Source: Spirogloea muscicola
Taxonomy: Eukaryota
Direction of reading: 5' to 3'
Assembly (NCBI GenBank): GCA_009602725.1
Contig: WELB01000002.1
Coordinates: 483,780-547,779, forward strand
Length of the DNA: 64,000 nt
The position numbers and the translations under genes are program-made. Numbering within the stretch: the stretch's first letter is position 1; each line of letters opens with the position of its first letter. Below, piece after piece: positions 10,501 through 48,406 of the stretch. The notes beneath the pieces are model-generated. The model searched no databases and had not been told where the DNA came from. It saw only the letters and a program-made list of their open reading frames with translations.

Positions 10501-10987
10501 AGGCGGCCCTTGCAGGATCACGACCTCGACAAAGGCGGCCGCTGCGGGTACCAATGCTTTGCTCGATACGCTGCGGCGGCCTACTCGGACTAGGCCGGGC
10601 TCGGGACGAAGCTCTTGCCTGGGGCCGTCTACGTCGTCTCAGTCAACGGCGAACCAGTCGCACGGCGTGAGATCGGCGGGGTGCCAGTCGGTGAGGAAGC
10701 CATAGGGGTCGTCGGTGATGCCGGCCTTGAAGGCCAGCAGCGCAGCCAGGTCGGAGCTGCGTGGGAGAGAGTGACGAGCAGTCAGCCGTGGGGGGACACA
10801 CGATGGAATGCGGCTGCTGATAACGAAAGAGCGGCTGTGAAAGCCAAGCCAGGTGCACACAGCAGGTGCTCATGACGGAGCCACAAAGCGCAAGGGCTGC
10901 TCACGCGAGGCCCCCGGCGGCGGTCCCGAGGCGGCTGAGCAGCGCGACGGCGGCGAGCGCTGCGGCGGCGAGCGATGCGGCTGCCAT
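7501..10987 (-). pseudogene. LRR receptor-like kinase copy A (RD kinase), probably frameshifted near the C-terminus
   Basis: Signal-peptide exon (MAAASLAAAALAAVALL, ATG 10987), N-cap exon (LLAFKAGITDDPYG..W..C.W), LRR exons, one 72-nt LRR exon (~9591-9662), large LRR-TM exon (8647-9370) and kinase exons (AVKRL, HRDVKPNN, DFGLAR, GTIGYLAPD). An extra base at ~7705 (CCT-G-TTG-GAG vs CCA/CCT-TTG-GAG in copies C/D) causes a premature stop. Confidence 0.8.
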
Positions 10988-11870: not shown

Positions 11871-12808
11871 CGGCGGAGCGACTACAAGGGCCAATGCCCA
11901 CGCACGACGCCAACCTGCCGAAGACCGTTCAAAGCGCGACGAGGGAAGCCCATCTACAGGGACCTCAACCACCAACAAGACCGTCAAGGTGGGCGCTACC
12001 GAAGCAGTGGAAAGGCGACCGTGGAACAGACGGCCGAAGACCACCAACTCAAGGTCAGGTCGACCACTGGGTCGAATGAACGGCCCTGAGAGACCACCCT
12101 TTCCCCTTAGCCAACCAGCGAGCAGCGCACCTAGCCAATCAGGTAGCGCTAAGGTTTCACCGCATCCGGCCCATGTCGGAGCGCGCGAGCCCTGCCAAGC
12201 AGTTCGCTTGGCAAATCTCACCCTCCTGCCGCGCCTGCGCCCACCGCGCCTGTGCCGACCAAGCCTGCGTATACTCGCGCCTGCGTCCGCGAGAGCGTAG
12301 AGCCCGGCGCCCACGGCGTGCGCGCTTAGTGAGCGTTGCGCGAACCCGCTAGCGACTGCGAGAAGTCGTATTTCTTCTGTAGTGAGCAGCTTATCATTGC
12401 GCTGTTCTTGCGAGTCTTACCATCGGAGTGCTGTGCTCATTGCTTGTGCACACGTCTTTGCATTGGTTGCTTGTTTGCACGTAAGGCGCGCCCTTGAGGC
12501 CCCTTTACCATATTCACAAAAGGCGCGCCCTTGAGGCCCCTTTGAATATTGGTGGTGAACCTAGATAGGGCCGGTCTTCGGACGGTCGTGTGACTGAGAT
12601 ACTGGTGACGGGAAACTCGCGATACAGTGGCACGTTACTTTCATTTGCCAAGCGAACTCTGAGCTTGAGTTTATTGCATTGGATTGCTAGTACTTGCTTG
12701 AACTCTGCTCAAGGCTGCAAGTGCGACTGTTATCTCTGAGTTAGATTGTTGCCAGTGTTATCGATCAACTGTCGATTGCGTTGTGATCTGTTTTTCGGCT
12801 ACTATTGC

Positions 12809-16975: not shown

Positions 16976-16981
16976 CAATTA
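16973..16981 (+). promoter_or_regulatory. Stop-codon readthrough signal UAG-CAA-UUA between ORF1 and pol
   Basis: TAG CAA TTA matches the tobamovirus-type UAG-CAR-YYA leaky-stop consensus; the same frame stays open from 16976 to 20089. Confidence 0.8.
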
Positions 16982-19900
16982 CAATGTGTAGCCCATACTG
17001 CTGATAAATCCATTGTTGAGTACAAGTGGCAGCTGGGTCTTCAGTTGAGTGATGAACAGAGGCATCGACTAACGATAATGCTTCAGGAGAATATTGCATG
17101 TTTTGCTTTCTCGGCAGCTGACTTAGGTACTTATGTGGGTGCCAAGTTCCAAATTAAACTCAGTGACGACAAGCCTATCTTCCGGAAGAGGTATACCTTG
17201 TCTCCATATGAGGATGAGCTTGTAGCGAAGAGATGTCAAGAACTGCTTGCTCTTGGTATGATAGAACCATCTAATAGTTCTTTTGCAGCACCTACAGTCC
17301 TACCAGCGAAGAAAGACGAGCATGGCAACTATACTGACAGACGCATGTGTGGTGACTACCGGTTGCTGAATGCAAATACACCCTTGGATAGGTATCCAAT
17401 GCCCACTCCGGAAGAGATTTTTAATCGCATAGGTTCTGCAAAGCTTTTCTCTGTCTTGGATTTGAAAAATGGGTTCAATCAAATTGCAATTGAGCCTGAT
17501 GATAGACACAAGACTGCATTCTGGGGCGTAGATACACTATATCAATGGACAAAGATGCCGTTTGGACTGAAGAATGCACCGTCTATGTTTCAGCGTGTTA
17601 TGGACCAGGTGTTGAAAGGAGTTCCATACGCCAAATGTTACATAGACGATGTTCTGATATTCAGTCATGAATTTGTTGAGCATGTGACTCATATTGACTC
17701 TGTTCTTAAGATGATACAGAGTTCAGGTTTGAAGTGCCATCCAGGAAAATGCCGGTTTGCACTCACTGAGGTCCATTATCTTGGGCATCAGATAACAGAG
17801 AATGGTCTTTCTCCGCAAGATAGCAAGGTGCAAGCAATCCTGTCCATTCCTGCACCTACCAATCTTACATCTTTGAGATCGTTTTTAGGACTTGCCAGTT
17901 TCTATCGTCGGTATATTGAGCATTTTAGCTCTTTGGCTCGTCCTCTCAACAGTCTGCTCAAAAAGAATACGCCTTGGCTATGGGGATCGGAACAGGAACA
18001 CGCTTTTTGCCAGTTGAAGCATTCACTGACAACAGCTCCTGTTTTACGACGTCCTGATTATGCTAAAGAGTTCCAGTTGCATACAGACTGGAGCAAACTC
18101 GGCATGGGAGCTGTACTTGTGCAGCAGGACGAAGATCACCATGATTATGTCATTGCTTATGCAAGTCGTTCTAACAATGCTGCCCAACGTAATTACTCTG
18201 CTTATGAAGGCGAATGTCTTGCAGCTGTTTGGGCTGTCACGCATTTTAGACCGTACTTATATGGACGACCTTTCAAGCTCGTCACAGATCATCAACCTTT
18301 GAAGTGGTTACTGACCACTAATCATTTGACTGGCAAACTCGCCCGATGGGCACTACGTTTGACAGAATATAAGTTTGAAATTGTTCATAAGCCAGGACTG
18401 CAGAATCTGGACGCAGATGCTCTGAGCCGCAACCCTATACCGGCAACTATGGATGAGCAATTCGCCTTGCTTTCAATTGCTATTGTGTCAGTACCTCTGA
18501 GTAGTCCTGCTTCTTACCTGGCATGCTTTGCTATGCATTCGCCACATGCCTGTGCTATAGACGGCCCTGATGATACCTTCTTTTCCAAAGATGTTTGGCT
18601 GGATCTGCCTGCACTTCATTACCTACAGAATGGCATGTATCTACCTCATCTTTCTACCATACAGAAGGATCGGGTAAAACACCGGGCCCGACGCTATGTC
18701 TGGCAAAACAATCAACTTGTTCGTCCGCATGAGGAATACGGAAACCAGGTTGTTCCTCCTCCTGCTGAACGCTTACAACTCGTCCAAGATGTTCATACGA
18801 ATTATGGACACTTCGGTGTAAAACGTACAATCAGTCTTCTCATGCCTAGATATTGGTGGCATGGTGTGACCAACACTGTTAAACAGGTTCTGTCACAATG
18901 TGAGGAATGCGACCGCATCCGTAGCACATTCTCCCTGAAGTCTCCAGTATTACATCCTTTGCCAATTGAAGGGCTCTTTTACAGATGGAGTCTTGATTTG
19001 GCGGGACCACTTCGACTGGGTGAACGGCAAAGGCCGTATGTTCTCATTATGATCGAGCATTTCTCTAAATGGGTAGAAGTTGTTATTATTCCTACCAAAA
19101 CTAGTGAACTCATCGCTGATGCTTTCAAGAATGCTGTGCTCACCCGGTATGGTGCTCCAGCAGAAGTGCTTACTGATCGAGGCACTGAATTCAAGGGTGC
19201 CTTTCAGCAGCTGTTGGACCGCAGCTTCATTGATCACCGTCTTACATCAAGGGATCATCCGCAGGCTGATGGTTTAGCAGAGCGGATGGTGCAGACGATA
19301 AAGAAAGGTTTGATGAAATATGTGATGAAACATGGCATGGAACGCTGGGACCAATTTTTACCATGGCTGATTATGGGCTATCGAATGTCAAACCAGACTT
19401 CTCTGTCTTGCTATAGTCCCTATTTTCTGCTATTCGGTCGACACCCTGTCATTCCATCTAACATCCGTCTTGTCAGTAACGACGTAAACCTGGATAACCC
19501 AGTGATTTGGTACAAGGTCTGCGCGGCCAGAGGCAAACTCTTCCAGAAGCATATGCCGATGGCCCTGAACAACTTGCGTATCGCTCAGCATCGGGATACT
19601 AACAGGTACGCTACCATTCGTAGTGGTGGGTACAAACCACAGTCTAAAGACATTGATCTTGGTGACTTTGTGTATGTGAAGGTGAAACCACAAGACGCCT
19701 TAGACTCTTCAACAGGACCTCTCATCCTTCAGGTTGTTGAGAAACACTCTTCAGGTGTGGTTAAACTTCGTGGTTCATGCAATCGTGTAATCAGTGATCA
19801 TGTTCAAAATGTTACACGTTGTCATCTGAGCAATATTGATCCAACCATTGACCCCACTAACCAATGGGTTTCTGAGAATCTATCTTGTGAACTTTGTCAG

Positions 19901-20089
19901 CGTTCCGATCAGGCAGTTCAAATGCTTTTATGTTCTCTTTGCAATAGGGGTTTCCATATACACTGCCTTGATCCACCACTGACTTCTATTTCACTGGCTG
20001 ATTGGTTCTGTGTGACCTGTTCAGATACTTTCCTAACTGCTCCACCTGTGCCAGGACTGACACTTGGGGGGGGGGGAACTACAGATTAA
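16976..20089 (+). CDS. pol: Pol: reverse transcriptase - RNase H - DDE integrase - C-terminal PHD finger
   Basis: RMCGDYRLLN, LDLKNGFNQI, MPFGLKNAP, YIDD (RT); TDWS...E...TDH...DADALSR (RNase H); H-H-CEEC, DLAG, TDRG, AERM (integrase); C4HC3 PHD at 19886-20020. Confidence 0.95.
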   Translation, partial: QLQCVAHTADKSIVEYKWQLGLQLSDEQRHRLTIMLQENIACFAFSAADLGTYVGAKFQIKLSDDKPIFRKRYTLSPYEDELVAKRCQELLALGMIEPSNSSFAAPTVLPAKKDEHGNYTDRRMCGDYRLLNANTPLDRYPMPTPEEIFNRIGSAKLFSVLDLKNGFNQIAIEPDDRHKTAFWGVDTLYQWTKMPFGLKNAPSMFQRVMDQVLKGVPYAKCYIDDVLIFSHEFVEHVTHIDSVLKMIQSSGLKCHPGKCRFALTEVHYLGHQITENGLSPQDSKVQAILSIPAPTNLTSLRSFLGLASFYRRYIEHFSSLARPLNSLLKKNTPWLWGSEQEHAFCQLKHSLTTAPVLRRPDYAKEFQLHTDWSKLGMGAVLVQQDEDHHDYVIAYASRSNNAAQRNYSAYEGECLAAVWAVTHFRPYLYGRPFKLVTDHQPLKWLLTTNHLTGKLARWALRLTEYKFEIVHKPGLQNLDADALSRNPIPATMDEQFALLSIAIVSVPLSSPASYLACFAMHSPHACAIDGPDDTFFSKDVWLDLPALHYLQNGMYLPHLSTIQKDRVKHRARRYVWQNNQLVRPHEEYGNQVVPPPAERLQLVQDVHTNYGHFGVKRTISLLMPRYWWHGVTNTVKQVLSQCEECDRIRSTFSLKSPVLHPLPIEGLFYRWSLDLAGPLRLGERQRPYVLIMIEHFSKWVEVVIIPTKTSELIADAFKNAVLTRYGAPAEVLTDRGTEFKGAFQQLLDRSFIDHRLTSRDHPQADGLAERMVQTIKKGLMKYVMKHGMERWDQFLPWLIMGYRMSNQTSLSCYSPYFLLFGRHPVIPSNIRLVSNDVNLDNPVIWYKVCAARGKLFQKHMPMALNNLRIAQHRDTNRYATIRSGGYKPQSKDIDLGDFVYVKVKPQDALDSSTGPLILQVVEKHSSGVVKLRGSCNRVISDHVQNVTRCHLSNIDPTIDPTNQWVSENLSCELCQRSDQAVQMLLCSLCNRGFHIHCLDPPLTSISLADWFCVTCSDTFLTAPPVPGLTLGGGGTTD

Positions 20090-20776: not shown

Positions 20777-20999
20777 GTGGGCAGCCCGTCCTCCTCCGTC
20801 CACTTCTGGCCACTTCAGTCGCTGTGTGCTCTAACGATTGTCCGGCCCCTTCGTTCATTCCTTTTCTGGGCTGGCCTCTCCCAGCCACCGCGCTCTCATG
20901 GAAGCATCTTACTTTCGAACTTCATTCATCCTGTTATTTGCGCTGGCCGATCACAGCCATCGCCCTCTACAAGGCCCGAAAGGGCCGGGCAGTCAGCCT

Positions 21000-23261
21000 T
21001 CCGAGGTCCGGGCAGCTTTTGTTGCATGAGATTTTCAAAAAGCATAGCAGAGAAATATTGTTAAATTTGGGCAGAGGGCAGCTTCGAGCCTACTGGTTGT
21101 TGTCGACAGACAGAACACTGAGACTGGTGCAGTTTCCCAGCTCAGACGGTAAGATACCAGTGAGGCTGCAATGCAAGGAAGAGCAAAGCTCACATACAAA
21201 GTCGCCAGCATCTGCGCTTTCCCTAAGCACAAATTGTCAGCTCCTTTCAAGGTCCGGGCAGCTACTGTTGCATGAGATAAGCAAACAGTATAGCAGAGAT
21301 AAATGGCTGACACTTGGCAGAGGGCAGCTTCGAGCCTACTTGTTGTTGTTGACAGAAAGAACACTGAGGCTGGTGCAGTTCCCCAGCTCAGACGGTAAAA
21401 TACCAGTGAGGCTGCAATGCAAGGAAGAGCAAAGCTCACAAACAAAGTCGCCAGCATCTGGGCCTTTTTTTAGAACACAATCTGCAGTCAGCTCATTTCA
21501 AGGTCCGGGCAGCTCCTGTTGCATGAGATATCCAAACAGTACAGCAGAAATATATGGCTGACACTTGGCAGAGGGCAGCTTCGAGCCTACTGGTTATTGT
21601 CGACAGAAAGAACTCTGAGCCTGGGGCAGTTTCCCAGCTCAGATGGTAGAATACCAGTGAGGCTGCAAGGCAAGGAAGAGCAAAGCTCACATACAAAGTC
21701 GCCAGCATCTGGACCTATTGTTAAACACAATCTGCAGTCAGCTCCTTTCAAGGTCCGGGCAGCTACTGTTGCATGAGATATCCAAACAGTACAGCAGGAT
21801 TATATAGCTGACACTTGGCAGAGGGCAGCTTCGAGCCTACTGGTTGTTGTTGACAGAAAGAACGCTGAGAGAGGTGCAGTTGCCCAGCTCAGACGGTATG
21901 TTACCCGAGAGGCTGCAATGCAAGGAAGAGTAAAGCTCACATACAAAGTCGCCAGCATTTGGGCTTTTACTAAATACAAATTGCAGTCAGCTCCTTTCAG
22001 GTCTGGGCAGCTACTCTTCATCTACTGCTCTAAGTACTCTCCTACATGTTGGTCAATCTGACAATCAGATGCAACCTTACAAAGAATACATGATCACTTG
22101 TCATTGCCTGTCCTGCCACACACTGACATGTCATGACAATAGCTGAACATAATAGAAGCAAAACTCTCACGGCTCAACATAGCTGCACATCTCCTAATGA
22201 ACTTTTGAGGAAACCTGTTCCTGACTAAAGCTCGATTTCAACTAGATCTCCAGAACGCTGGCAAATTCCCATTAGTGCATGCCAGTGCATGCAGGAGGAT
22301 GTACAGTAGTAGTTGCTGACTCTAATCACCAGATGAAATCCTGCTCATCTGAGCATAAAGAATCCTCTGCAATAAGCTGTGCATCTGCAACCCTCAGATA
22401 TGGTCAACCTTTGGCATGCTGACCTGTTGTCGTTGAGGTAGAGTTCGCCAAGCAGCGGGAGGCTACCCAGTGCAGGAGGGATGGGGCCCGAGATACAGTT
22501 GTTTGACAGGTATATGTTGTACAGGCTGTCAACATTGGCAAGCTCCGGTGCCAGCGTGCCGTTCATTTGCCCGTCGTTCAGAAAAAGCCCAATCACTAGC
22601 CTGCACGTGTGTACCAGCGGCCAGCAGCGGAGAGAGCTGAACTTGATCGGTCTTGGACTCACACTGCACCTCGCAAGGAGCTCGCAAATACGCTGCTTGC
22701 TCAGTAGCCCTCCACTGAGCTGCCGCTAGTCCTGTTGCTGCAGAGGAGGCGGGCCCTGCAGGGTCACGACCTCGACTCTGGCGGCCGCTGGAGTTAACAA
22801 TGCTTGTGCACTGCCTGATTTCGTTATCGTTGTCGCACAAAACACCGTGCCAGTCGCACGGCCAGTTATGACTGGTGAGGCGCCAGTCGGTGAGATAGCC
22901 ATAGGGGTCGTGGGTGATGCGAGCCTTGAAGGCCAGCAGCGCAGCCTGGTAAGAGCTGCGCGGGTGAGGATGACGGGCACTCAGCCGGGGAGGGGGGCAC
23001 ACGGAGGCCCACGCAGCTGTGGCGCTGGAGTGCAGCCGCAGCAGGGAGCCCGACGGCGAGTGTGGCGGACGAGGAGAGGGCTCGCAGGCGCAATGTGCTT
23101 CGTTTGGGAGAGCCACTTGATGCTCTAGGCGCAATGTGCTTCCTGGCGCAGGAGTAGCCGCGGCGCGGAAGGGCTGCTCACTTGAGGTCCCCGGCGGTGG
23201 CGGAGCCGAGGCGGGTGAGCAGCGCGACGGCGGCGAGCGCTGCGGCTGCCATGCTCGCCAT
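21000..23261 (-). pseudogene. LRR-RLK copy B, 3'-truncated (signal peptide, N-cap, 2-LRR exon, four tandem 72-nt LRR exons; no TM or kinase)
   Basis: MASMAAAALAAVALLTRL; AALLAFKARITHDPYG; GTLAPELANVDSL; four ~247-bp units with acceptors near 21913, 21663, 21412, 21165; homology ends at a TE mosaic near 21000. Confidence 0.8.
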
Positions 23262-23854: not shown

Positions 23855-24658
23855 NNNNNNNNNNNNNNNNNNNNNNNNNNNNNNNNNNNNNNNNNNNNNN
23901 NNNNNNNNNNNNNNNNNNNNNNNNNNNNNNNNNNNNNNNNNNNNNNNNNNNNNNNNNNNNNNNNNNNNNNNNNNNNNNNNNNNNNNNNNNNNNNNNNNNN
24001 NNNNNNNNNNNNNNNNNNNNNNNNNNNNNNNNNNNNNNNNNNNNNNNNNNNNNNNNNNNNNNNNNNNNNNNNNNNNNNNNNNNNNNNNNNNNNNNNNNNN
24101 NNNNNNNNNNNNNNNNNNNNNNNNNNNNNNNNNNNNNNNNNNNNNNNNNNNNNNNNNNNNNNNNNNNNNNNNNNNNNNNNNNNNNNNNNNNNNNNNNNNN
24201 NNNNNNNNNNNNNNNNNNNNNNNNNNNNNNNNNNNNNNNNNNNNNNNNNNNNNNNNNNNNNNNNNNNNNNNNNNNNNNNNNNNNNNNNNNNNNNNNNNNN
24301 NNNNNNNNNNNNNNNNNNNNNNNNNNNNNNNNNNNNNNNNNNNNNNNNNNNNNNNNNNNNNNNNNNNNNNNNNNNNNNNNNNNNNNNNNNNNNNNNNNNN
24401 NNNNNNNNNNNNNNNNNNNNNNNNNNNNNNNNNNNNNNNNNNNNNNNNNNNNNNNNNNNNNNNNNNNNNNNNNNNNNNNNNNNNNNNNNNNNNNNNNNNN
24501 NNNNNNNNNNNNNNNNNNNNNNNNNNNNNNNNNNNNNNNNNNNNNNNNNNNNNNNNNNNNNNNNNNNNNNNNNNNNNNNNNNNNNNNNNNNNNNNNNNNN
24601 NNNNNNNNNNNNNNNNNNNNNNNNNNNNNNNNNNNNNNNNNNNNNNNNNNNNNNNNNN
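23855..24658. other. Assembly gap (N run)
   Basis: Run of N characters. Confidence 1.
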
Positions 24659-28213: not shown

Positions 28214-28930
28214 AAATGCGTGTATATATTAAGAGATGGGGAGGCCATGTGTGGCCAAGTACAAAGGCAAGCACATTGGACATATGTACGTCACCTGCTG
28301 CTAAGCTGACCCGCTCAGTAACCACGAGTCAGCACATAGAGGTCGCTAGCTGACGCTCGAATACCGGACGGCAATTGACTAGCTCTTGTGCCAGCAGCTA
28401 AGGCTCGACCAGCTTTCTGATGCAGAGCATACGCCTGAGCTCGTTGCAGACAGGTTGACACTAGACGTCGCAGAAATGACAGATAGGCTGCCGGCATACC
28501 CATCTGGGCTGGGAGCATATCCTCGCGTCGTGCATATCCCAGACTCGCTATGTTCTCGAGTAGGGTATGGAAGCGAGGACCCAAGCAGCCGAAAGTGTCG
28601 ATTGCGGCCGGGAGGAGGTGGTCACTGCGGGGGTAGTCTGAGTAGTGTCGGAGCTTTTTCTGCTCAGCACCTCCCACTGCGTGGCCAGCAATGTGTGTGG
28701 AAGCGGAACTCTTGTATGCCTCAGTCACCACCACATCAACCAAAGCTCGTGGGCCTCCGCCAGGTTGTACACCCACAATGTCCAGGGTGCGACGGTGATG
28801 GCCTCCCTGGGAATCCGTGGTGATGGGCATTACATTGCTCACTTCAACGATGGCGCGGTAGCCGGCGTCGCGCATCAAGCCCGCCAGGGCGTCCCGTAGG
28901 AGATTGTGGACGCCCACCACCTCAGGGCAG
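28214..28930 (-). mobile_element. 5'-truncated RLE-LINE with 7-bp TSD
   Basis: ORF 28315-28920: HNLLRD...RRTLDIV...DVVV...KKLRHY...AIDTFG...LQRAQA...LTRGY*. TSD GAGAAGA at 28207-28213 and 28931-28937; the empty site is seen at ~5567. Confidence 0.85.
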
Positions 28931-29234
28931 GAGAAGAGGGCGGTGGCTGTGAGAGGCCAGCCCAGGGAAAAGAACTAACGAAGTTTGAAGGAGCCAGAGA
29001 AAGCTCTGAAGCACACAGTGAATCACGTGGCCACGAAGCAATCAGTAACCTCAGAAGAAGTGCTCGCCCATATAGGATAGGGGCTGGGAAGACAGAGCAA
29101 GACTCTTTCAGTAAAGGGCGATGGCTGGGATTGGCCAACCCAGAAAATGAAGAAAACAGTTCAATTGGCCAGAAAAGCTTTCATTGCACACAGCGACGCA
29201 AGTGGCCACTGGGTGCACAATACCACTATTTCTA

Positions 29235-29892: not shown

Positions 29893-31197
29893 TGCTCCCT
29901 GCAGGCATCCCTTCACACGAATGGGCGGCCTGGGCTGCAGGTCACTTGAACAGACGGCGCAGGCAGCCTTTCTCGGTTGCTGGCACCAGGTTGCCTCCCT
30001 CCTCCCCTTGCGCTTCCCTTGTCTGGCGGGCCCTGCAGCCGAGGTGGAAGAAGGCTCCTTGGCATTCCAAGTGCAACTGAGGAGCACCCGCGAGTCAGCA
30101 CTCTGCTCCTTCCCCTCATTGCAACCCCTCTTCACTCCCTTCTCAGCGCTTGCTCAAGCATCAGACAAAGGGGCACATGCCAGACTCCTTGCTGCATTTG
30201 AAGACGAGCGCCGCAAGTCGTTGAAGACGATGCCGGATATCATGACCAATCCAAGGAGTCTGGCACGCCTCACATCGCTCGCAACGACTGGTGCAACTGA
30301 TTGGCTCACCACACACGCAATCCACAATGCTTTTAGAATCAGCCCCGAGGCACTCCGGACGCTTCTTCAGCTGTTGTCCTGGGCCTGCCCCCGACCTGAC
30401 TGATTGGAGTAACTCAGTGTGAGTGCGGCTTCCGTGCGGAGGGCGGAGACCTTGCCACCCACATGATGCGGTGTCCCACAGGCTCTGAGGTGGTGGGCGT
30501 CCTTAACCTCCTACAGGACGCCCTGGCGGGCCTGATGCGCAACGCCGGCTACCGCGCCATTGTGGAAGTAAGCAATGTAATGCCCATCACCACGGATTCC
30601 CAGGGACGCCATCACCGTCGCACCCTGGACATTGTGGGTGTACAACCTGGCGGTGGCCCACGCGCCTTGGCTGATGTGGTGGTAACGGAGGCACACAAGA
30701 GTTCTGCTTCGACGCACACTGCTGGCCACGCAGTGGGAGGTGCTGAGCAGAGAGAGCTTCGACACTACTCTGACCACCCCCGCAGCGATCACCTCCTACC
30801 GGCGGCAATCGACACTTTCGGCTGCATGGGCCCTCGCTTCCACACCTTACTGCAGAATATTGCAAGCCTGGGATACGCTCGACGTGAGGATATGCTTCCA
30901 GCTCAGATGAGCATGTCGGTAGCCTACTTGTCATTCTTGCGTCGTCGAGTGTCAGCTTGTCTGCAGCGAGCTCAGGCTCATGCGTTGCATCAGAAAGCTG
31001 GTCGAGCCTTAGCTGGTAGCTCAAGAGCTTGTCGATTGCCGTCCGGTATTCGGGCATCAGTTAGCGACCTCTATGTGCTGACTCGTGGTTACTGAGCGGG
31101 TTAGCTTAGCAGCAGGTGACGTACATTTGTCAATGTGCTTGCCTTCGTACTTGGCTACAAATGGCCCTCCATCTCTTAATACACACGCATTCCTCTT
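29893..31197 (+). mobile_element. 5'-truncated RLE (CRE-like) LINE: RT thumb, zinc knuckle, restriction-like endonuclease
   Basis: RMGGLGCRSLEQTAQAAFLGCW; GATDWL; QCECG..H..RC; RRTLDIV..ADVVV; ends LTRGY* at 31095; absent from the paralogous site at ~6415. Confidence 0.85.
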
Positions 31198-32330: not shown

Positions 32331-35300
32331 TTACCCGGTGGCACCGGTTGACTTAGGAAACGTCAACCCAGCACCACATGATTCGAGATTCTGGAGCATC
32401 TCAACAACGTCAACCATCGTTGGCCTTTGTTTTGGGATATTGGAGCAGCAAAATAGCCCAACTTTCAAGGCGCCCCGTATTTCGTCCACTTTCTGGGGGA
32501 CGAATGGAGCTAGCGCCATATCAACGCACTCCAATGGCTTCTTGTGATTAAGGCATGATCGCACCCACAAAATTAAGGTGCCACCAGCTGCAACCTCGGT
32601 CTGAAAGAAAGGGTCAACAGGCCGTTTGCCAGTGACAGTCTCCAGCAGCATCACTCCAAAACTGAAGACATCGCTGTACTCGGTCAGTTGGCCTAGGGCG
32701 CAGTCTGGAGCGAGATAACCGATTGTGCCTGCCCATGTGCATCACCATGACGTCATGAGTTGCAGGAAAGATGACCCATGATCATTGCGCGGCAGTCTGA
32801 GGTGCCTCTACCAGCATCTACCAACACATCCTTCTTGCACGGTGCCAGAGAGGCCTACGATACAGCTCAGCAGACATTGAAAGGCAGTAAAAGCTACCTG
32901 CAGCCATGGTTGAAACGTGCGTTTCATGTGCCTGAAAGATTCGTGCAAGCCCAAAATCGGCCACGTAACCTTGACCATGTTCATCCAACAAGGTGTTGTT
33001 TGGCTTGACGTCCCTATGCAGCACACGAGGACTGCACTCATGATGCAGGTACTTAAGCCCAACTGCTGCATCCAATATGACCTTCATCCGTGCAGCCCAG
33101 TGATCAAACGCGTCTGGCTTTGGAGGCACGCCCTTGCCCCCGTGCATCAACTGGTCAAGATGTCCGCCAAGCAAGAAAGGGTAGATGAGGAGCATGCCCG
33201 CTTGGCTGTCCCTGGGGATGTACCAGCCCTGTAGAGGGACCAAATTGCGGTGTCTGATGCGACTCAGTGTCTCCACCTCAGCTTCCACCGATCGCAATCC
33301 TTGCTTGCTGTCTCCTGCTAGCCTCTTCACTGCATACTTTTGGCCATTCTTCATCTGCGCACTGCTCAGCATATCCATACAAATGATGTATAGATTTGTT
33401 TGAGGCCATATTTTAGGGAGAGGCCTGGACAAGCAACACCAAGAAAAACACACCACTTGCAAGTGGGGAATCCACTTACCCGTAGACTTTTCCGAAGCCC
33501 CCGAAGCCAACTATCAACTTTTCATTGAAGTTCTCAGTTGCATCCATAAGCTCCTCCAAGGTGAAGGGAGCTTGTAATATATCCTGCGTGATGGACATCT
33601 CGGAGCAGAAGTGCTCAAAGGTCCGCTTGTCTGGCATAGTCCTGTCGTTCTTCTTCTTCCAAGCTAAGCAGCACAGCAGGAGAAGTCCCAGCAACAGGAG
33701 GAGAAGGACAACAGCCCCAACAACAATGCCAGCAATTGCCGCCCCCGATAAGCTCGACGATTTGTGCTCTGGAGGTGGTGGGAAAGGCGGAAGAGAACGA
33801 GGTGGGGGAGCTATCTTGCAGGCCAAATAAGGGCCGCCACATAAGGCGGCATTGCCAGAAAAGGAGCTGCTGTTGAAATGACCAATAAGACCGTCTGGAA
33901 TAGGCCCACTGAGGTTGTTGTTGGAGATGTTAAAGAAGATGAGGCGACCCAGATTTGCAAAAGACGCCGGGATGCTGCCGTTGAGCTTGTTGTCAGAAAG
34001 GTCGAGACTGATCAGATCCGGCAGACTGCCAATGTCAACAGGTATGGGCCCGCTGAATAAGTTGCTTGCAGCCGAAAATGTGAAGAGGTAGAATAAATTT
34101 CCAATCTCCAGGGGGAGACTGCCTGTTAGGCGGTTGCTGGAGATGTCTAGGTTTTGAGCAATTTGCAGACCCCCAATGCTCGCAGGTACACCTCCGGTCA
34201 AATTGTTGTGATCTAGGTGAACACTCAATGCACTGCTTAGGTTGCCTAGCCACGCTGGAAATGGGCCAGATAATTTGTTATTGTCCATCTTCAGCACTTG
34301 CAATTTCTCCAGATTGGAAAAGTTTGTCGGAATCGGTCCAGAGAAGTTGTTGCCAGCAAGCCAGAGCTCCTTGAGCAGCACAAGTTTCCCCAACTGAGGC
34401 GGCACAAGGCCACTTACCCTGCCAGTTGGAAGTGAGCCGCTAAGATTGTCAGCTGTGGCTCCTGCAATTTATGTATCTGCTGACACGGCAAATCAGGTAA
34501 ACTATGGCTGCATCAAAGACGCAGTCACCAGTGAGCTCCTGTCAAGGTCCTGACAGCTACTGTTGCATGAGATATCCAAACAGTATAGCAGAGATGTATG
34601 GCTGACACTTGGCAGAGGGCAGCTTCGAGCCTACTGATTGTTGCTGACAGAAAGATAGCTGAGACTGGTGCAGTTCCCCAGCTCAGATGGTAAGATACCA
34701 GTGAGGCTGCAATGCAAGAAAGAGCAAAGCTCACATACAAAGTCGCCAGCAATTGGGTTTTCCCTTACACAAATTGCAGTCAGCTCCTTCAAGGTCCAGG
34801 CAGCTACTGTTGCATGAGATATCTAAACAGTATAGCAGAGATATACGGCTGACACTTGGCAGAGGGTAGCTTCAAGCCTACTGGTTGTTGTTGACTGAAA
34901 AAAAGCTGAGACTGGTGCAGTTCCCCAGCTCAGACGGTAAAAAACCAGTGAGGCTGCAATGCAAGGAAGAGCAAAGCTCACATGCCAGCATTTGGGCTTT
35001 CCCTAAACACATATTTCAGTCAGTTTTTTTCATGGTCCGGGCAGCTACTGTTGCATGAGATATTCAAACAGTACAGCAGTGATAAGTGGCTGACACCCGG
35101 CAGAGGGCAGCTTCGAGCCTACTGGTTGTTGTCGACAGAAAGAAGATTAAGTCTGGTGCAGTTCCCCAGCTCGGATGGCAGAATACCAGTGAGGCTGCAA
35201 GGCAAGGAAGAGCAAAGCTCACACACAAGATTGCCAGCATTTGGGCTTTCATTCAACACAAACTGCATTCAGCTCCATTCAAGGTCCGGGCAGCTACTGT

Positions 35301-38300
35301 TGCCCGGACCTTTAGAAAGGTCCGGGCAACAGTGTAGCAGAGATATATGACTGACACTTGGCAGAGGGCAGCTTCGAGCCTACTGGTTGTTGTTGACAGA
35401 AAGAAAGCTGAGACTGGTGCAGTTCCCCAGCTCAGACGGTAGAATACCAGTGAGGCTGTAATGCAAGAAAGAGCAAAGCTCACATACAAAGTTGCCAGCA
35501 TTTGGGCTTTTCCTACATACAAATTGCAGTCAGCTCCTTTCAAGGTCCGGGCAAGCTACTGTTGCATGAGATATCCAAACAGTATAGCAGAAGTATATGG
35601 CTGACACTTGGCAGAGGGCAGTTTCGAGCCTACTGGTTGTTGTCGACAGAAAGCACGCTGAGACTGGTGCAGTTCCCCAGCTCAGACGGTAGAATACCAG
35701 TGAGGCTGCAATGCAAGGCAGAGTGAAGCTCACATACAAAGTCGCCAGCATTTGGCTTTTACTTAACACAAATTGCAGTCAGCTCCTTTCAAGGTCCGGG
35801 CAGCAACTGTTGCAGGAGATATCTAAACAGTATAGCAGAGATATGTGGCTGACACTTGGCAGAGGGCAGCTTCGAGCCTACTGGTTGTTGTCGACAGAAA
35901 GAACAAAAGACTGGTGCAGTTCCCCAGCTCAGGCGGCAAAATACCGGTGAGGCTGCACTGCAAGGAAGAGCAAAGTTCACATAAAAATTTGCCATCATTT
36001 GGGCTTTCACTCAACACAAATTGCAGTCAGCTCTTTTCAAGGTCCGGGCAGCTACTGTCACATAAGATATCTAAACAGCATAGCAGAGACATACGGCTGA
36101 CACATGGCAGAGGGCAGCTTCGAGCCTACTGATTGTTGTTGACAGAAAGAATTCTAAGACTGGTGCAGTACCCCAGCTCAGGCGGTAAAATACCGGTGAG
36201 GCTGCAATGCAACGAAGAGCAGAGCTCACATACAAAGTCGCCAGCATTTGGGCTTTTACCAAGCACAAATTGCAGTCAGCTCCTTTCAAGGTCCTGGCTA
36301 CTGTTGCATGAGATACCCGAACAGCATAGCAGAGATTTATGGCTGACACTTGGCACAGGGCAGCTTCGAGCCTACTGGTTGTTGTTGACAGAAAGATAGC
36401 TCAGACTGGTGCAGTTCCCCAGCTCAGGCGGCAAAATACCAGTGAGGCTGCAATGCAAGGAAGAGCCAAGCTCACATACAAGGTCGCCAGCATTTGGGGT
36501 TTTTGTAAAGACAAATTGCAGTCAGCTCCTTTCAAGGTCCGGGCACCTACTGTTGCATGAGGTCTCCAAACATTATAGCAAAGACATATGGCTGACACTT
36601 GGCAGAGGGCAGCTTCGAGCCTACTTGTTGTTGTTGACAGAAAGAAAATGGAGACTGGTACAGTTCCCCAGCTCAGACGGTAGAATACCAGTGATGCTGC
36701 AATGCAAGGAAGAGCAAAGCTCATTCTACAAATGTCGCCAGCATTTGGGCTTCTACTGAACACAAATTGCAACCAGCTCCTTTCAAGGTACGGGCAGCTA
36801 CTGTTGCATGAGATATCCAAACAGTATAGCAGAGATGTACGGCTGACACTTGGCAGAGGGCAGCTTCGAGCCTACTGATTGTTGTCGACAGAAAGAACGC
36901 TGAGACTGGTGCAGTTCCCCAGCTCAGACGGTAAATGACCAGTGAGGCTGCAATGCAAGGCAGAGCAAAGCTCACATACAAAGTCGCCAGCATTTGGGCT
37001 TTTACTTAACACAAATGGCAGTCAGCTCCTTTCAAGGTCCGGGCAGCAAATGTTGCATGAGATATCCAAACAGTATAGCACAGATATGTGGCTGACACTT
37101 GGCAGAGGGCAGCTTCGAGCCAAACTGGTTGTTGTCGACAGAAAGATAGCTGAGACTGGTGCAGTTTCCTAGCTCAGGCGGCAAAATACCAGTGAGGCTG
37201 CAATGCAAGGAAGAGCAAAGCTCTCATACAAAGTTGCCAACATTTGGGCTCCTACTAAACTGAAAGTTGCAGTCAGCTCCTTTCAAGGTCCGGGCAGCTT
37301 CTGTTGCATGAGATGACCAAACAGCATAGCAGAGATGCATGGCTTGACACTTGGCAGAGGGCAGCTTCGAGCATACTGGTTGTTGCTGACAGTAAGAACG
37401 CTGAGACTGGTGGAGTTCCCCAGCGCAGGCGGTAAAATACCAGTGAGGCTGCATTGCAAGGAAGAGCCAAGCTCACATACGAAGTCGCCAGCATTTGGGC
37501 TTCTACTAAACATAAATTGCACTCCACTCCTTTTAGGTCCAGGCAGCTACTCTTCATGTACTGCTCTATGTAGTGTCCTCAATGATGGTTACTCTGGCAT
37601 TCAGATGCAACCTCATGAAAAGACAATATCACTTGTCATTGCCTGTTCTGCCACATACTGATACGTCATAACAGTAGCTGCACAACATAGAAGCAGGACC
37701 CTCACGGCTCCACATAGCTGCACATGTCATGGACTTTTGAGGAAACCTGTTCCTGACTAAGGCCCGATTTCAGCTACATCTCCCAAGCGCTGGCAAATTC
37801 CCATTACTGCATGCCAGTGCATGCAGGAGGATGCACAGTAGTAGTCGCTGACCCTAGTCACTATCAAGAATCCTGCTCAACAGAACATGAAGGTATCTCA
37901 ACAATAAGCTGTGCATCTGCAAGCCTAAAATGGTTAACCTTTGGCATGCTGACCTGTTCTCGTCGAGGTAGAGTTCGCGGAGCTGCGGGAGGCTACCCAG
38001 CGCCGGAGGGATGGGGCCGGAGAAAGAGTTACCAGACAGATATATGGACGTCAGGCTGCCAATACTAGCAAGCTCCGGTGCCAGCGTGCCTTCCAACTTC
38101 AAGTCCTCCAGATTGAGCCCAATCACTCGCCTGCAAATGTGTACCAGCGGCCAGCAGCAAAGAGAGCTGAGCTTGATCAGATCTCGAACTCACACTGCAC
38201 CTCGCAAGGAGCTCGCAACAACGCTGCTGGCTCAGAAGCCCTCCACGGAGCTGCCGCTAGTCCTGTGGCTGCAGAGGAGGCGGGCCCTGCAGGCTCACGA

Positions 38301-38881
38301 CCTCGACAACGGCGGGGCCGCTGGGGGTACCAATGCCTGTGCCCTTGCTTGATACGTCGCGGCGGCCCACTCGGACTAGACCGGGCTCAGGACGAAGCTC
38401 TTGCCTGGGGCCGCCTATGTAGTCGCACTCAACGCCATGCCACTTGCACGGTGTGACATCGGCGGGGTGCCAGTCGGTGAGAAAGCCACGTGGGTCGTGG
38501 GTAGTGCGGGCCTTGAATGCTAGCAGCGCAGCCTTGTCGGAGCTGCGCGAGAGAGGATGACGGGCAGTCAGCCGGGGGGAGCCACACGGAGGCCCACGCA
38601 GCGCGGGCGCCGGAATGCAGCCTCAGCAGGAGCCCGACGGCGACGCGGCGGACGAGGAGAGGGCTCGCAGGCGCAATGTACTTCCTTTGGGAGAGCCACT
38701 TGGTGCTCTAGGCGCAATGTGCTTCGTTTGGGAGAGCCACTTGATGCTCCAGGCGCAATGTGCTTCCTGGCTCAGGAAGAAAGCCGCGGCGCGAAAGGGC
38801 TGCTCACTTGAGGTCCCCGGCGGCGGCGGCGGAGCCGAGGCGGGTGAGCAGCGCGGCGGCGGCGAGCGCTGCGGCTGCCAT
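32331..38881 (-). CDS. LRR-RLK copy C with 12 tandem single-LRR exons (one of them frameshifted)
   Basis: ATG 38881 signal exon; N-cap exon ~38407-38543 with GC donor; 2-LRR exon ~37954-38130; 12 cassette exons; large LRR-TM exon 33480-34418; kinase exons to stop 32331 (AVKRL, HRDVK, DFG, APD). Confidence 0.8.
34540..37560 (-). repeat. Tandem array of 12 x ~247-bp exon+intron units, each with a 72-nt phase-2 LRR exon
   Basis: Each unit reads cag|C CTC ACT GGT...AAC AAC CA|gt = LTGILPxELGNCTSLxxLSVxNN; acceptors near 34707, 34953, 35194, 35455, 35705, 35952, 36201, 36447, 36696, 36947, 37197, 37448. Confidence 0.92.
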
Positions 38882-40244: not shown

Positions 40245-43200
40245 ATGGCAGCCGCAGCGCTCGCCGCCGTCGCGCTGCTCACCCGCCTCGGCTCCGCCGC
40301 CGGGGACCTCGCGTGAGCAGCCCTTCCGCAACGCGGCTGCTCCTGAGCCAGGCAGCACATTGCGCCTAGAGCACCAAGTGGCTCTCTCAAAGCATGGCAC
40401 ATTGCGCCTGCGAGAGCCCTCTCCTCGTCCGCCGCGTCGCCGTCGGGCTCCTGCTGCGGCTGCACTCCAGCGCCCGCGCTGCGTGGGCCTCCGTGTGGCC
40501 CCCCCAGCTGACTGCCCGTCGTCCTCTCCCGCGCAGCTCCGACCAGGCTGCGCTGCTGGCCTTCAAGGCCGGCATCACCAACGACCCCCATGGCTTCCTC
40601 ACCAACTGGCACCCCGCCGATCTCACGCCGTGCGACTGGTTCGGCGTTGCGTGCAACGGCGTAGAAGGCCCCAGGCAAGAGCTTCGTCCCGAGCCCGGCC
40701 TAGTCAGAGTGGGCCACCGCAGCATATTAAGCAAAGGGCACAAGCATTGGTACCCCAGCGGCCCCGCCGTTGTCGGGGTCGTGACCCTGCCGGGCCCGCC
40801 TCCTTTGGAGTCACAGGACTAGCAGCAGCTCCGTGGAGGGCTTCTGAGGCAGCAGCGTTGCTCCTTGCGAGGTGCAGTACGAGTTCAAGATCTGATCAAG
40901 CTCAGCTCTCTCTACTGCTGGCCACTGGTACACACTTGCAGGCGAGTGATTGGGCTTTTTCTGAAAGACGGGCAGTTGAACGGCACACTGGCACCGGAGC
41001 TGGCTAATATTGGCAGCCTAAAGTACATATATCTGCTCAACAACTCTTTCTCGAGCCCCATCCCTCCGGCGCTGGGTAACCTCCCGCAGCTTGGCGTTCT
41101 CGTCCTCGACCAGAACAGGTCAGCATGCCAAAGCTTGACCGTATTTGAGGGTTGCATATGCACAGCTTATTGCAGAGATACCTTTCTGCTCTGATGAGCA
41201 GAATTCTTGATGGTGATTAGGGTCAGCAACTGCTACTGTGCATCCTCCTGTATGCACTGGGCATGCAATGATGGAAATTTGCCAGCGCTTAGGGAGATCT
41301 AGCTTGAAATCGGGCTTAGTCAGGAACAGATATCCTCAAAAGTCCACTAATATATGTGCAGCTATGTTGAGCCATGAGGGTCCTGCTTCGAAATTGTGCA
41401 GCTATTGTCATGATGTGTCAGTGTGCGGCAGAACAGGCACTGACAAGTGATATTATGTTTCGCAAGGTCGCATCTGATTGTCAGGTTGACCATTATTGAG
41501 GAGAGTACTTAGAGCAGTAGATGACGAGATCAAGAGCTGACTGAACCTTGAAAGGAGCTGATTGCAACTTGTCCTAAGAAAAGCCAAACTGCTGGCGACT
41601 ATGTGAGCTTTGCTCTTCCTTGCATTGCAGCCTCACGGGTATTCTACCGTCTGAGCTGGGGAACTGCACCAGTCTCAGCTTCGTTTCTGTCAGCAACAAC
41701 CGGTAGGCTCGAAACTGCCCTCTGCCTAAGTGTCAAGCTATATATTTCTGCTACAATCATTGAATTTCATGCAACAGCAGCTGCCCGGACCTTGAACGGA
41801 GCTACTGCGATTTGTGTTAGTGAAAGCCCCATTGAGCCTGACCTCCAACTTGTAAGGGCTTGCCTGCAGCCCATGTCAATTGCTTGACCCCTATCAAAAG
41901 CTCTTTTTGTTTCAGCTTGGAGGGTGGAGTGCCACCAGAGCTCGCTGATCGCAGGGGAATGATCAGCCTGGACCTGAGCCACAACAGGTGCTGAGCTGTG
42001 ACTGCATCTTCAATGCAGCCATGAGTTGCCTGATTTGCCATGTCAGCACATTACATAAGTTGCAGAGGAGCCACAGCTGGCATCCTTAGCGGCTTACTCG
42101 CAATTGTTGGCAGGTTAAGTGGCCACCTGCCACCTGAGTTGGGGAGACTCGTGCTGCTCACCAAGCTGTGGCTTGCTAGCAATAAATTCTCTGGACCGAT
42201 CCCAACGACGTTCTCCAATCTGAAAAACCTGCAAGTGCTGACAATGGACAATAACAATTTCTCTGGCCCATTCCCACAGTGGCTTGGCAACTTCAGCAGT
42301 GCATTGACTATTTCCCTAGGTCACAACAACTTGACCGGAGGAGTCTCTGCAAGCATTCGCAGTCTGCAAAGCGTTCAGTATCTTGACATCTCCAACAACC
42401 GCCTTACAGGCATTCTCCCCCTGGAAATTGGAGAATTAAGCAGCCTCAAAACATTTTCGGCTGCAAGCAATTCATTCAGCGGGCCAATTCCGGAGGGTAT
42501 TGGCAACTTGCCGAGTCTTACCTATCTCGATCTTTCCAACAATAATCTCAATGGCAGCATTCCGGCAAATCTGGGTTCTATACCTTTCTTTAACATCTCC
42601 AATAACAACCTCAGTGGGCCTATTCCAGACATGCTCATTGGTCATTACAACAGCAGCTCCTTTTCTGGCAATCCCGCCTTATGTGGCGGCCCTTATGTGG
42701 CCTGCAAGACAGGTCCACCACCTCCAGTACACAAATCGTCGAGCTTATCAGGGGGGGCAACTGCTGGCATTGTTGTTGGGGCTGTTGTTCTTCTCCTCCT
42801 ATTGCTGGGACTTCTCCTGCTGTGCTGCTTAGCTTGGAAGAAAAAGAAGGACAAGACTATGCCAGACAAGGAGCGGAGCATTGAGCAATTCTGGTCCGAG
42901 ATGTCCATCACGCAGGATAGACTCCAAGCTCCCTTTACCTTCGAGGAGCTCATGGATGCAACTGAGAACCTCAATGATCATTATATTGTTGGCATTGGGG
43001 GCTTCGGGAAAATCTACTGGTAAGTAACCTTGCCTACTTGCAAGGTGGTGTGCTATCCTTGGTGCAAATTGTTCAGGCCTCTTCTTAAAGTACGGTACAC
43101 ACAAACTTACGATCATTTTGATGGAGATGCTGAGCAGCGCGCAGATGAAGAATGGCCAAAGGTATGCAGTGAAGAGGCTACCAGCAGACAGCAAGCAAGG

Positions 43201-44206
43201 ATTGAGATCGGTGAAAGCTGAGATGGAGACACTGAGTCGCATCAGACATCGCAATTTGGTCCAGCTACAGGGCTGGTACATCCCCAGGGACAGCCAAGCT
43301 GACATGCTCCTCATCTACCCTTTCTTGCTTGGCGGAAATCTTGACCAGTTGGTGCACGGGGGCAAGGGCGTGCCTCCAAAGCCAGACGCATTTGATCACT
43401 GGGCTGCACGGATGAAGGTCATATTGGATGCAGCAGTTGGGCTTAAGTACCTGCATCATGAGTGCAGTCCTCGTGTGCTGCATAGGGACGTCAAGCCAAA
43501 CAACACCTTGTTGGATGAACATGGTCAAGGTTACGTGGCCGATTTTGGGCTTGCACGAATCTTTCAGGCACATGACACGCACGTTTCAACCATGGCTGCA
43601 GGTAGCTTTTACTGCCTTTCAATGTCTGCTGAGCTGTATCGTAGGCCTCTCTGGCACCGTGCAAGAAGGATGTGTTGGTACATGCTGGTAGAGGCACCTC
43701 AGACTGCCGCGCAATGATCATGGGTCATCTTTCCTGCAACTCATGACGCGTCACGGTGATGCACATGGGCAGGCACAGTCGGGTATCTCGCTCCAGACTG
43801 CGCCCTAGGCCAACTGACCGAGTACAGCGATGTCTTCAGTTTTGGAGTGATGCTGCTGGAGACTGTCACTGGCAAACGGCCTGTTGACCCTTTCTTTCAG
43901 ACCGAGGTTGCAGCTGGAGGCAGCTTAATCTTGTGGGTGCGATCTTGCCTCAATAACAAGAAGCCTTTGGAGTGCGTTGACATGGCGCTAGCTCCATTCT
44001 CCCCCCAAAAAGTGGACGAAATACGGGGCGCCTTGAAAGCGGGGCTATTTTGTTGCTCCAATATCCCAAAGCAAAGGCCAACAATGGTTGACGTTGTTGA
44101 GATGCTCAAGAATCTCGGAGCATTTGGTGCTGGGTTGACGTTTCCTAAGTCATCATTGCCAATAGACGGGACGGCAATGGACAAGCTTTTGTGCCACGGG
44201 ACTTGA
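40245..44206 (+). CDS. LRR-RLK copy D, apparently intact
   Basis: Exons 40245-40312, 40537-40674 (GC donor), 40942-41118, 41631-41702, ~41916-41987, 42114-43019, 43137-43600, 43773-44206 splice in frame: signal peptide, N-cap, LRRs, GNPALCG, TM, RD kinase. Confidence 0.85.
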
Positions 44207-44789
44207 GAGGTGGCCAGCCTTTACAGGGGTGACTGAGGGTTTCGCAGCTACTTGATTCTCTGTGTGCTCTAGCGCTTTCCCTTGGCCCCTTCGAACTTTG
44301 ATCATTCATCTTTCTGGGCTGGCCTCCCACAGCCACCGCCCTCTCCTGGAAGCGTATTTCTTCTTTCAAGGATGGACAGCGTCCCATCAGCGTCCCAGTA
44401 GCCCTGTGGTCAATGGAATGGAATGGAGCTTTGCCCGTTCTGCAGCGGTGGCAGAAACACGTACAATTTACCAACTTACAAGTATGGTCGTCACAGTGGT
44501 GAGATTGAATCAATGGCACATAATACCAGCTGCAGCCTCTGGCTTTCGTCAAGGGACTGCTTTACGGCTGCTAGTCTTTCTGACTTGCGGCTCTGAGTAA
44601 AATTTAGTGGTGATAAATGAGTGACTACCCCGCATGGTATCTCTTAATTATGTGTTTCAGCGCTTTTTGGCCCCTTCTGACCTTGTCCACTCGTTTAGGG
44701 CTGTCTTTTCACTGGCTGACTTGGTTATGTGTTACAGCAAATCCTCAGCCGCTTACGACCTGGTCACTTCTTTCCTGTAGGGATTTGTC

Positions 44790-45260
44790 ACAAGAAGGTT
44801 CTCAATGCTCCGCTCTTTGTCTGTCATGGTCTTTTCCTTCTTCCGAGCTAAGCAATACAGCAGGAGCAGTCGCAGCAACAGAAGGAAAAGGACAACAAAA
44901 GCACCAATGCTGCCAATTTCTCCCCCTGATAAGCTCGACGATTTGAACTCCGGAGGTGATCGAAACGGAGGAACAATCGAGGTGGGGCAGCTCTTCCAGC
45001 CAGGCCACATAAGGGCCGCCACATAAGGCTGCATAGCCAGAAAAGGAGCTGGCGTCGTAATGAGTAGGACCACAGGAAAAGGCCCACTGAGGTCGTTGTT
45101 TGAAGACATTGATAAGATAGTCAAGACCCAGATCCGCGAAGGATGTCGGGATGCTGCTTTTTAATTCCTGGTTTGGAAGTTCGAGGTAGGTCAAAGCCGG
45201 CAGATAAATACTCTCCTCTGGCTTGGGTCCGCTGAAAGAGTGTTTTGATGACGCGACCAG
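44790..45260 (-). pseudogene. Degenerate LRR-TM fragment of the same RLK family
   Basis: Frameshifted SFSGP..LTYL..SIPTSFA / DLSGP / FSGYAALCGGPYVA / KSSSLSGG..VVLFLLLL..TDKERSIE. Confidence 0.8.
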
Positions 45261-47329: not shown

Positions 47330-48406
47330 GGAACAGGCCGTCCCCTTCATCCACCTCGCCCACACCCCCGACCTGCGTGCCCAGGCACGCTTCACGGCGT
47401 TGGTTGAATAAGCGGCCTCTGACCAGGTGGTGGAGCTTCTCCCTCTGTCTGACCTCCACGGGCGTGCTAGGCTCCTGTCAGCCTCTTCCCCAGGGGCGGC
47501 TGCGTGGTTGTCAGCGCTCCCACTCTACGCAGCACTAAATTATGGCCGATGAGGTCTTTAGGACGGCAGTCATCGGCTCTTGGGCCTCCTCCCTCCCTGC
47601 CTCGTGGGCGTCACTCAGTGCAAGTGCGATGCCAGTCACGCCGACCCTGCGGAGCTGGCTGCCCACATGCTCCGCTGCGCGCACAGGGGCGAGCGGACAG
47701 GTTCACACGACCTCCTGCGAGACGCCATGCAGGGTGTGTTCCTGGAGGCCGGCTACAAGGTGGCAGTGGAGAACTCGACCATCGTGCCCATTCAGCGGGG
47801 CGTCGATGGACGGCTTCACCTCCGCCGCGCTGACCTCGTTGCCATCCCGTTCCGGAGGAGGTCCGCATATCATTGCAGATGTGGCGACTGCAGATAGCGT
47901 CGACTCCGCCAACTACGCAAAGTCGGCGACGCTCGCCGGGCACGCGGTCGCTTTGGCGGCTCGGAGTAAGGAGCGCAAGTACGCGGACCACCCTCCCGGC
48001 GATGGCTTCGCGGCCCTCGCCATTGACGTTCACGGGGCCTTTGGCAGTGGCTCGTTGGATCTCCTCCAGCGGCTTGCCCGGCAGGCCATCGAGCGACGGC
48101 CGGGTTCGCCAGGCTTTAATGCTGCCAGCTCCCTGGCTCAGGTATTTTGGATGAGGCTGGCGGCCTCGCTCCAGCGCTCTTTGGCTCATGTGGTCCACGT
48201 GCGGGCTGGCCGCGCTTTGACTGCTGCCTCCGGGTCTCGACAGAGTGCCTCTTTCCCTGCAGCGAGCTACTCTGACCTGCTGTTGCTCACTCGCGGGTAC
48301 TGAGCTTCCCTCTGCATCGTCTTGTGTTCTGTAATGTAGTCCTTTTCTGGTTTCTCTTTCTTTGGCTTTGGACATTGTCCATTCTTTTTGGGCTGGCTTT
48401 CTCAGC
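47330..48406 (+). mobile_element. 5'-truncated RLE (CRE-like) LINE
   Basis: GAAAWL; QCKC..H.LRC..SHDLLRD; RRADLV..IADV; KERKY; AIDVHGAFG; LQRS; LTRGY* (48303); 3' UTR interrupted at 48407. Confidence 0.85.

Follow-up and report, generated by a model that had tools for sequence, protein, structure and literature searches.

Five paralogous receptor kinase genes and a repeated LRR exon

The window analysed here, a stretch of 64,000 nucleotides of contig WELB01000002.1 from the alga Spirogloea muscicola, carries five paralogous genes for leucine-rich repeat (LRR) receptor kinases, named A to E, among which one small LRR exon is present in 12 copies in C, four in B and a single copy in each of A and D. 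Gene C (32331-38881, minus strand; Pfam LRRNT_2, LRR and Pkinase) has 18 exons. The first (38808-38881), which is Ala/Leu-rich and was judged by eye, likely encodes a signal peptide, the second (38405-38542) an LRR N-terminal cap (PF08263, E 1.6e-13) and the third (37954-38130) N-terminal LRR strands. They are followed by the array of the repeated exon (34529-37558), by a large exon (33480-34418) coding for further LRRs, the C-terminal cap, a Pro-rich stalk, a transmembrane segment and the start of the kinase, and by two kinase exons (33361-32898 and 32728-32331, together 32331-33361). The putative signal peptide and transmembrane segment correspond to hydrophobic stretches seen by eye in the translation. 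The catalytic Lys and the HRD and DFG motifs of the kinase are all present, and APE is replaced by APD. The intron following exon 2 (after 38405 in C) has GC-AG ends, a form kept at intron 2 in all five paralogs.

The repeated unit, of approximately 250 bp, is made of a 72-nt exon in phase 2 on both sides, which encodes one plant-type LRR, and of an intron of 169-189 nt. Tandem Repeats Finder delimits 12.2 copies with a period of 249 in C (34529-37558, minus strand) and 4.1 copies with a period of 250 in B (20989-22015), and a BLAST search with one unit returns 12 copies in C, four in B, one each in A and D, and a match in E (76.5% over 115 nt at 61815-61927). In gene sense, the unit exons of C start at 37448, 37197, 36947, 36696, 36447, 36201, 35952, 35705, 35455, 35194, 34953 and 34706. 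All 18 unit exons of A-D have AG/GT ends and 17 of them have 72 nt and phase 2-2, the exception being the seventh unit of C (C7; 35882-35952, minus strand), which has 71 nt, one base being missing at the variable xx codons of the LRR. From unit 1 to unit 12 of C the xx residues read SV, SY, SV, HF, SY, RI, the frameshift, SV, SF, NL, SF and SY, with S, D or N after the following V. The symmetric exons with their 1/4/12/1 distribution, these residues and the frameshifted unit had been pointed out in an earlier note on this DNA, with which the repeat and BLAST searches, the splice ends and the translations agree.

The units are 80-94% identical, and no pair exceeds 94%. A higher-order repetition of period 5 was considered and dropped, as only the pairs C3/C8 (94%) and C2/C7 (89%) fit it. 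In the intron after C9 (around 35290-35335) a direct and an inverted copy of the adjoining sequence take the place of 12 nt, which resembles a template switch; this intron is predicted to form a 17-bp hairpin and folds at -69 kcal/mol, versus -39 to -52 in the other ten. The idea that RNA pairing through this inversion loops out exons was abandoned, because the predicted fold places the inversion in the local 17-bp hairpin.

Three of the four other paralogs (A, B and E) are broken. Gene A (7500-10987, minus strand, 3' limit approximate), with its single unit at 9662-9591, is disabled, as codon 67 is a stop and the last exon is frameshifted; its large exon has 720 nt versus 939 in C, approximately three LRRs having been deleted within an uninterrupted exon. 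Gene B (20989-23252, minus strand) is a 5' fragment with four units (exon starts 21912, 21662, 21411 and 21165), which is open for 225 codons and breaks off past the fourth unit, without a transmembrane or kinase part. Gene D (40245-44210, plus strand, 3' limit approximate) encodes an intact receptor kinase of 776 amino acids and harbors, besides its unit (41631-41702), an E-type exon at 41916-41987. Gene E (55853-64000, plus strand), the long paralog, runs off the window and contains at least 24 one-LRR exons of 69-72 nt, two of which carry stops, and has no in-frame exon 1. Some of its one-LRR exons were duplicated independently (60230-61413, plus strand), as seen in the pairs 60425/60646, 61081/61342 and 60230/60900, which are 94%, 81% and 77% identical including their flanks. 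Similarity between the paralogs forms a patchwork. C and D are nearly identical along a tract of about 450 columns (approximately 32770-33220; distance 0.00-0.02, versus 0.26 nearby), which takes in part of the kinase and an intron, a pattern consistent with recent gene conversion. A sixth, ruined copy lies at 44793-45241 (minus strand) as an inverted, degraded piece of the large exon with the LRRs and the transmembrane segment; it shares 72-75% identity with A and C.

The protein encoded by C combines a receptor-like kinase (RLK) domain (PF00069/PF07714) with a plant-type LRR ectodomain (PF08263, PF00560 and PF13855), whose best solved relatives are the ectodomains of GSO1, FLS2 and ERL1. Its two closest named kinases are Spirogloea-type gene models with SM-type identifiers (82% and 77% identity), while it is 40-44% identical to the kinases of land-plant RLKs. 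No protein identical to A-D was present among the database matches, the homolog search with the N-terminal cap gave no match, and that with the large exon was dominated by generic LRR proteins. Among 53 selected kinases placed in a tree, the nearest neighbours of C are the two SM-type models (100/100). One Closterium protein and five unnamed long LRR kinases join them at the next level (96/96), and this clade of nine stands apart from the land-plant LRR-X, XI, XII and XIII sequences. Membership in LRR-XII (the FLS2/EFR/Xa21 type) was not found, C lying apart from the Xa21-like sequences among these 53 kinases. A non-RD kinase is a correlate of pattern recognition, and the kinases of A, C and D carry HRD and are of the RD type; the RD kinase and the position outside LRR-XII do not favour a classical immune receptor. 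Internal copying of LRRs is not unique to gene C, since six of the 160 kinase-bearing proteins fetched, including the Closterium relative, have at least three LRR pairs with 75% identity or more. This Closterium protein (P0174) contains its own run of near-identical LRRs.

Origin and age of the repeated exon

The single-copy counterpart of the unit is one exon of gene E (61820-61891) together with the first 150 nt or so of its downstream intron (61820-62040, plus strand). The unit intron matches this downstream intron with a score of 77, versus 35 for the best of 500 shuffles, as the earlier note had proposed, and it does not match the intron upstream of the same exon (score 22, reached by 104 of 500 shuffles). 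Moreover, each of A, B, C and D has, ahead of its first unit, roughly 105 nt of unit intron that match the downstream intron of E by homology; in C this 3' half-intron of a lost unit lies at 37449-37558 (minus strand). At least two units were therefore present in the common ancestor of the four genes, and those genes with one unit have contracted.

Traces of the lost exons are also retained. Intron 3 of all four genes contains a decayed relic of E exon 59925-59993, which is the best-matching tile of E, with scores of 75-87 versus 35-41 for the best of 300 shuffles; in C the relic and the following intron occupy approximately 37590-37810 (minus strand). D additionally retains the second-last small exon of E and a scrap of another, both absent from A and C. 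These relics indicate that A-D derive from an E-like gene by deletion, and the earlier suggestion that they lost most of the ancestral LRR exons is thus borne out. Repeat number changes at the DNA level, as that suggestion also implied, with 1, 4, 12 and 1 units among the paralogs.

The expansion appears approximately as old as the gene duplications, because unit introns differ as much as the genes do: the mean intron distance is 0.118 between units of C (45 pairs) and 0.114 between units of B and C (30 pairs), and between-gene distances range from 0.076 to 0.209 in 17 of 18 comparisons, the remaining one being 0.012. The intron of C9 was excluded from these statistics owing to its inversion. 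Neighbouring units differ by 0.119, as much as the average of 0.118, and the unit tree is star-like, with none of its 15 inner branches supported. Together with the half-intron shared by A-D, this divergence suggests that the units probably go back to a single old expansion, cut down to a different extent in each gene, rather than to the separate re-expansions of one exon envisaged in the earlier note, a history that does not fit an ancestor already equipped with at least two units as old as the gene duplications.

Several observations weigh against this history. The lack of support in the unit tree makes a single expansion the simplest reading rather than a proven one. Introns within B are closer to each other (0.086, three pairs) than to those of C (0.114), the B and C labels are mildly clustered on the tree (14 and 18 of 500 shuffles), and the p-AU of 0.175 allows the B units to form a clade, so that some gene-specific copying would fit as well. 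Finally, a test of the pairwise homoplasy index (PHI) type on the 13 complete units gave no recombination signal (P 0.68); among the same units, 36% of the informative site pairs are incompatible. Contigs from four DNA runs of one sample, for which all statements cover the listed pieces, contain a unit joining a C12-type exon end, a C2-type donor and a C10-type intron. This combination is absent from the window, and more units therefore probably exist elsewhere.

Selection on the LRR exons and the 71-nt seventh unit

Selection was analysed with our own fixed-sites codon model, in which the exposed sites are the five codons of the established xxLxLxx beta-strand register, and C7 was excluded from every codon test. 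In the 11 remaining units of C, the proportion of nonsynonymous differences (pN) is 0.236 at the exposed codons and 0.054 at the other 18, for a proportion of synonymous differences (pS) of 0.219, and only 299 of 33,649 five-codon sets reach the pN of the exposed set. The dN/dS ratio (omega) is 1.00 for the exposed and 0.25 for the remaining codons, two classes being better than one (likelihood-ratio test, LRT, p 0.0005). The scaffold of the cassette, whose omega of 0.25 is lower than 1 (p 0.0002), is under purifying selection; omega of the exposed class does not exceed 1 (p 0.97). Across all 17 units of A-D the values are 0.79 for the exposed and 0.28 for the remaining codons. Thus, during most of their history the units were constrained as translated sequence, and their face evolves at least neutrally. 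The earlier note had regarded random placement of substitutions as evidence against a diversifying array, and placement is non-random by both the codon-set count and the LRT. The dN/dS comparison that it proposed upholds a face that changes faster than a constrained scaffold, not one above neutrality.

The clearest diversifying selection in the cluster lies outside the cassette array, at the 15 exposed codons of exon 3, for which omega is 2.44 across A-D (p 0.003) and 3.64 between C and D (p 0.009).

The seventh unit is the only lesion in the 3,053 coding nt of C. When it is omitted, the gene encodes a protein of 993 amino acids with cap, LRRs, transmembrane segment and kinase; when it is included, a stop follows at codon 419. 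The splice-site scores of all 12 units of C, for donors and acceptors alike, fall inside the range spanned by 27 reference sites from D and E, and the scaffold codons of C7 show no further decay. The contigs contain no indel at this unit, and none of their listed pieces bridges it. Given the fragmentary B and the disabled A and E, C may itself be a young pseudogene or the carrier of an assembly error. A recent loss-of-function lesion is the most likely account of unit 7, although we hold it only tentatively; an assembly error is a possibility of lower standing, and a real lesion bypassed by splicing seems somewhat doubtful. The statement of the earlier note that the unit must be skipped is right insofar as its inclusion stops translation but slightly overstated, since weak alternative donors would yield in-frame exons of 48, 57 or 75 nt, and the assembly may be at fault.

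Mechanism, alternatives and known systems

On balance, we favour a birth-and-death cluster of receptor genes in which an ancestral exon-intron unit was copied in tandem, recombination later shortening the array to different lengths. An E-like gene with approximately 24 one-LRR exons would have duplicated one of them, unequal crossover between the 250-bp copies would have built the array, the older exons on both sides would have been deleted, and A and D would have collapsed to a single unit. The symmetric exons would allow unequal crossover and deletion to alter the length of the ectodomain in frame, its concave face being diversified by point mutation, and the products would serve as cell-surface receptors for variable extracellular ligands. 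The loss of approximately three LRRs inside an uninterrupted exon of A and the C-D identity tract both point to events at the DNA level, and the phase 2-2 symmetry likely matters for in-frame gain and loss of DNA, not for the mixing of isoforms. The clustering, the pseudogenes and the signal in exon 3 suggest a role of these receptors in recognition. Some of the selection data run counter to this picture. The exposed sites of the C units are about twice as variable as the introns (0.275 versus 0.141; 1.2% of random draws and 4 of 120 slid masks), an excess that weakens when B is added (4.3% of random draws and 22 of 120 slid masks). Exon 3 was the strongest of three regions compared (corrected p approximately 0.01), with two disabled genes among the data, and the exposed sites of the large exon have an omega of only 0.75-1.05.

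An array still changing in copy number between strains, with xx residues driven by an arms race with ligands, would account for codon 17, which has five amino acids in 11 units (pN 0.53 versus pS 0.22), and for the fact that only one of 172 six-base intron windows matches the variability of codons 16-17; the mosaic unit, found in contigs of all four runs, and the 94% identical exon pair of E also fit. However, near-identical units are absent, neighbours are not closer than average, omega at the exposed sites remains at or below 1, codon 17 was chosen post hoc and the introns hold equally variable patches, so that we regard this explanation as unlikely. Diversification by splicing, in which C would be transcribed and different subsets of cassettes included in a cell, unit 7 being skipped or acting as a poison exon, appears rather improbable. 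It agrees with the phase 2-2 units and their intact splice sites and with the clean 993-residue receptor obtained without C7. Moreover, only C7 among the 18 units carries an additional AG, located 5 nt upstream of its acceptor, a feature that would fit skipping and counts against a history of DNA-level change only, and Ectocarpus ROCO genes are reported to have up to nine splice forms (PMC11378527). On the other hand, the splice sites are not systematically weak, the scaffold codons of C7 are undecayed, broken paralogs are the norm in this cluster, and a single unit, as in two of the four derived genes, leaves nothing to combine. That one gene would yield an ectodomain repertoire from subsets of its eleven in-frame cassettes (at most 2,048 combinations), the frameshifted seventh unit being skipped or a poison exon, is a still more speculative proposal; if true, such a splicing-based recognition repertoire would be unreported for plant receptor kinases in the literature searched. 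An assembly artefact, affecting the array or its length, is highly improbable. The window does contain a gap of N at 23855-24658 and none of the listed contig pieces spans the array, but unit differences of 6-20% with codon-aware constraint could not arise from duplication of a collapsed contig, and contig depth is present in 27-30 of 30 bins, with just nine substitutions and one indel listed over 6.7 kb.

The birth-and-death cluster that we favour has counterparts elsewhere, which we compare here from the accessible parts of the cited papers. In the ROCO and LRR-kinase genes of Ectocarpus, one LRR is encoded per 72-nt exon with phase 2 introns, recent duplicates differ in repeat number (13 versus 17) and clusters are rich in pseudogenes (PMC3341825, PMC11378527). 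The present cluster is similar in its one LRR per 72-nt phase 2 exon (17 of 18 units in A-D; 24 E exons of 69-72 nt), in the varying repeat number of recent paralogs and in its pseudogenes A, B and E. It differs in encoding plant-type transmembrane receptor kinases instead of ROCO GTPases and in the homogeneous amplification of a single exon; here the data on the repeated exon stop short of showing positive selection, exposed sites having an omega of 1.0 and about twice the diversity of introns. Unlike in Ectocarpus, a six-frame motif scan revealed no inverted LRR exons on the opposite strand of A-D and only one decayed relic on the sense strand. In Tetrahymena, thousands of genes have 30-residue repeats, with a LINE-like (long interspersed nuclear element) sequence at the units (PMC6564038). 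Tandem exon-intron units in phase 2 on both sides, clonal expansion and numbers varied by unequal crossing over are shared with that system, whereas the window has five paralogs with plant-type repeats of 24 residues.

Among land plants, the tomato Cf-2/Cf-5 homologs have 25-38 LRRs and differ in number through recombination (PMC10515242). They resemble the present genes as plant-type extracellular LRR receptors varying in LRR number, but have a demonstrated resistance function, in contrast to this cluster. Cf proteins have no kinase, their repeats are not separate exons, and the LRR exons of the ERECTA family are of approximately 72 nt. Land-plant LRR-RLKs of subfamily XIII-2 have 26 introns, a structure conserved from moss to Arabidopsis (PMC5296948). 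Gene E resembles such intron-rich genes in its many-exon ectodomain, although the kinase of the cluster falls in a separate clade (96/96). Zygnematophyte algae are the sister lineage of land plants, and we know of no pattern receptor of this kind among them. No cassette array of this kind appears in the accessible parts of PMC2817689, PMC10588794 and 10.1101/2023.07.04.547604, and our literature search found none reported for a plant-type receptor kinase or a streptophyte alga, although an earlier description is possible. The cluster is thus a known mechanism, that of brown algae and ciliates, in a new receptor class and lineage, well preserved and with a revised history. It preserves intermediate steps by which a plant-type ectodomain lost approximately 20 old LRR exons and regained length from one, and it offers an algal example of a predicted binding face selected to change.

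Other elements are present in the window. Pieces of a dispersed repeat flank the receptor genes, and three of its related open reading frames (ORFs; 28315-28974, 30400-31095 and 47539-48303) have the same short terminal motif; the two that were tested gave no Pfam match. The 3' part of another multi-exon LRR receptor kinase gene lies at 1-3578 (plus strand) and, by eye, appears SERK-like (LRR-II). Finally, a Ty3/gypsy-like retrotransposon occupies 12740-20089 (plus strand). A C-5 cytosine methyltransferase domain (PF00145, E 7e-12) forms the end of its first ORF, and the second ORF encodes reverse transcriptase, RNase H, integrase and a PHD finger; the two ORFs lie in the same frame with a single stop between them. 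Charophytes are reported to have retrotransposons that bear a methyltransferase (PMC5890265).

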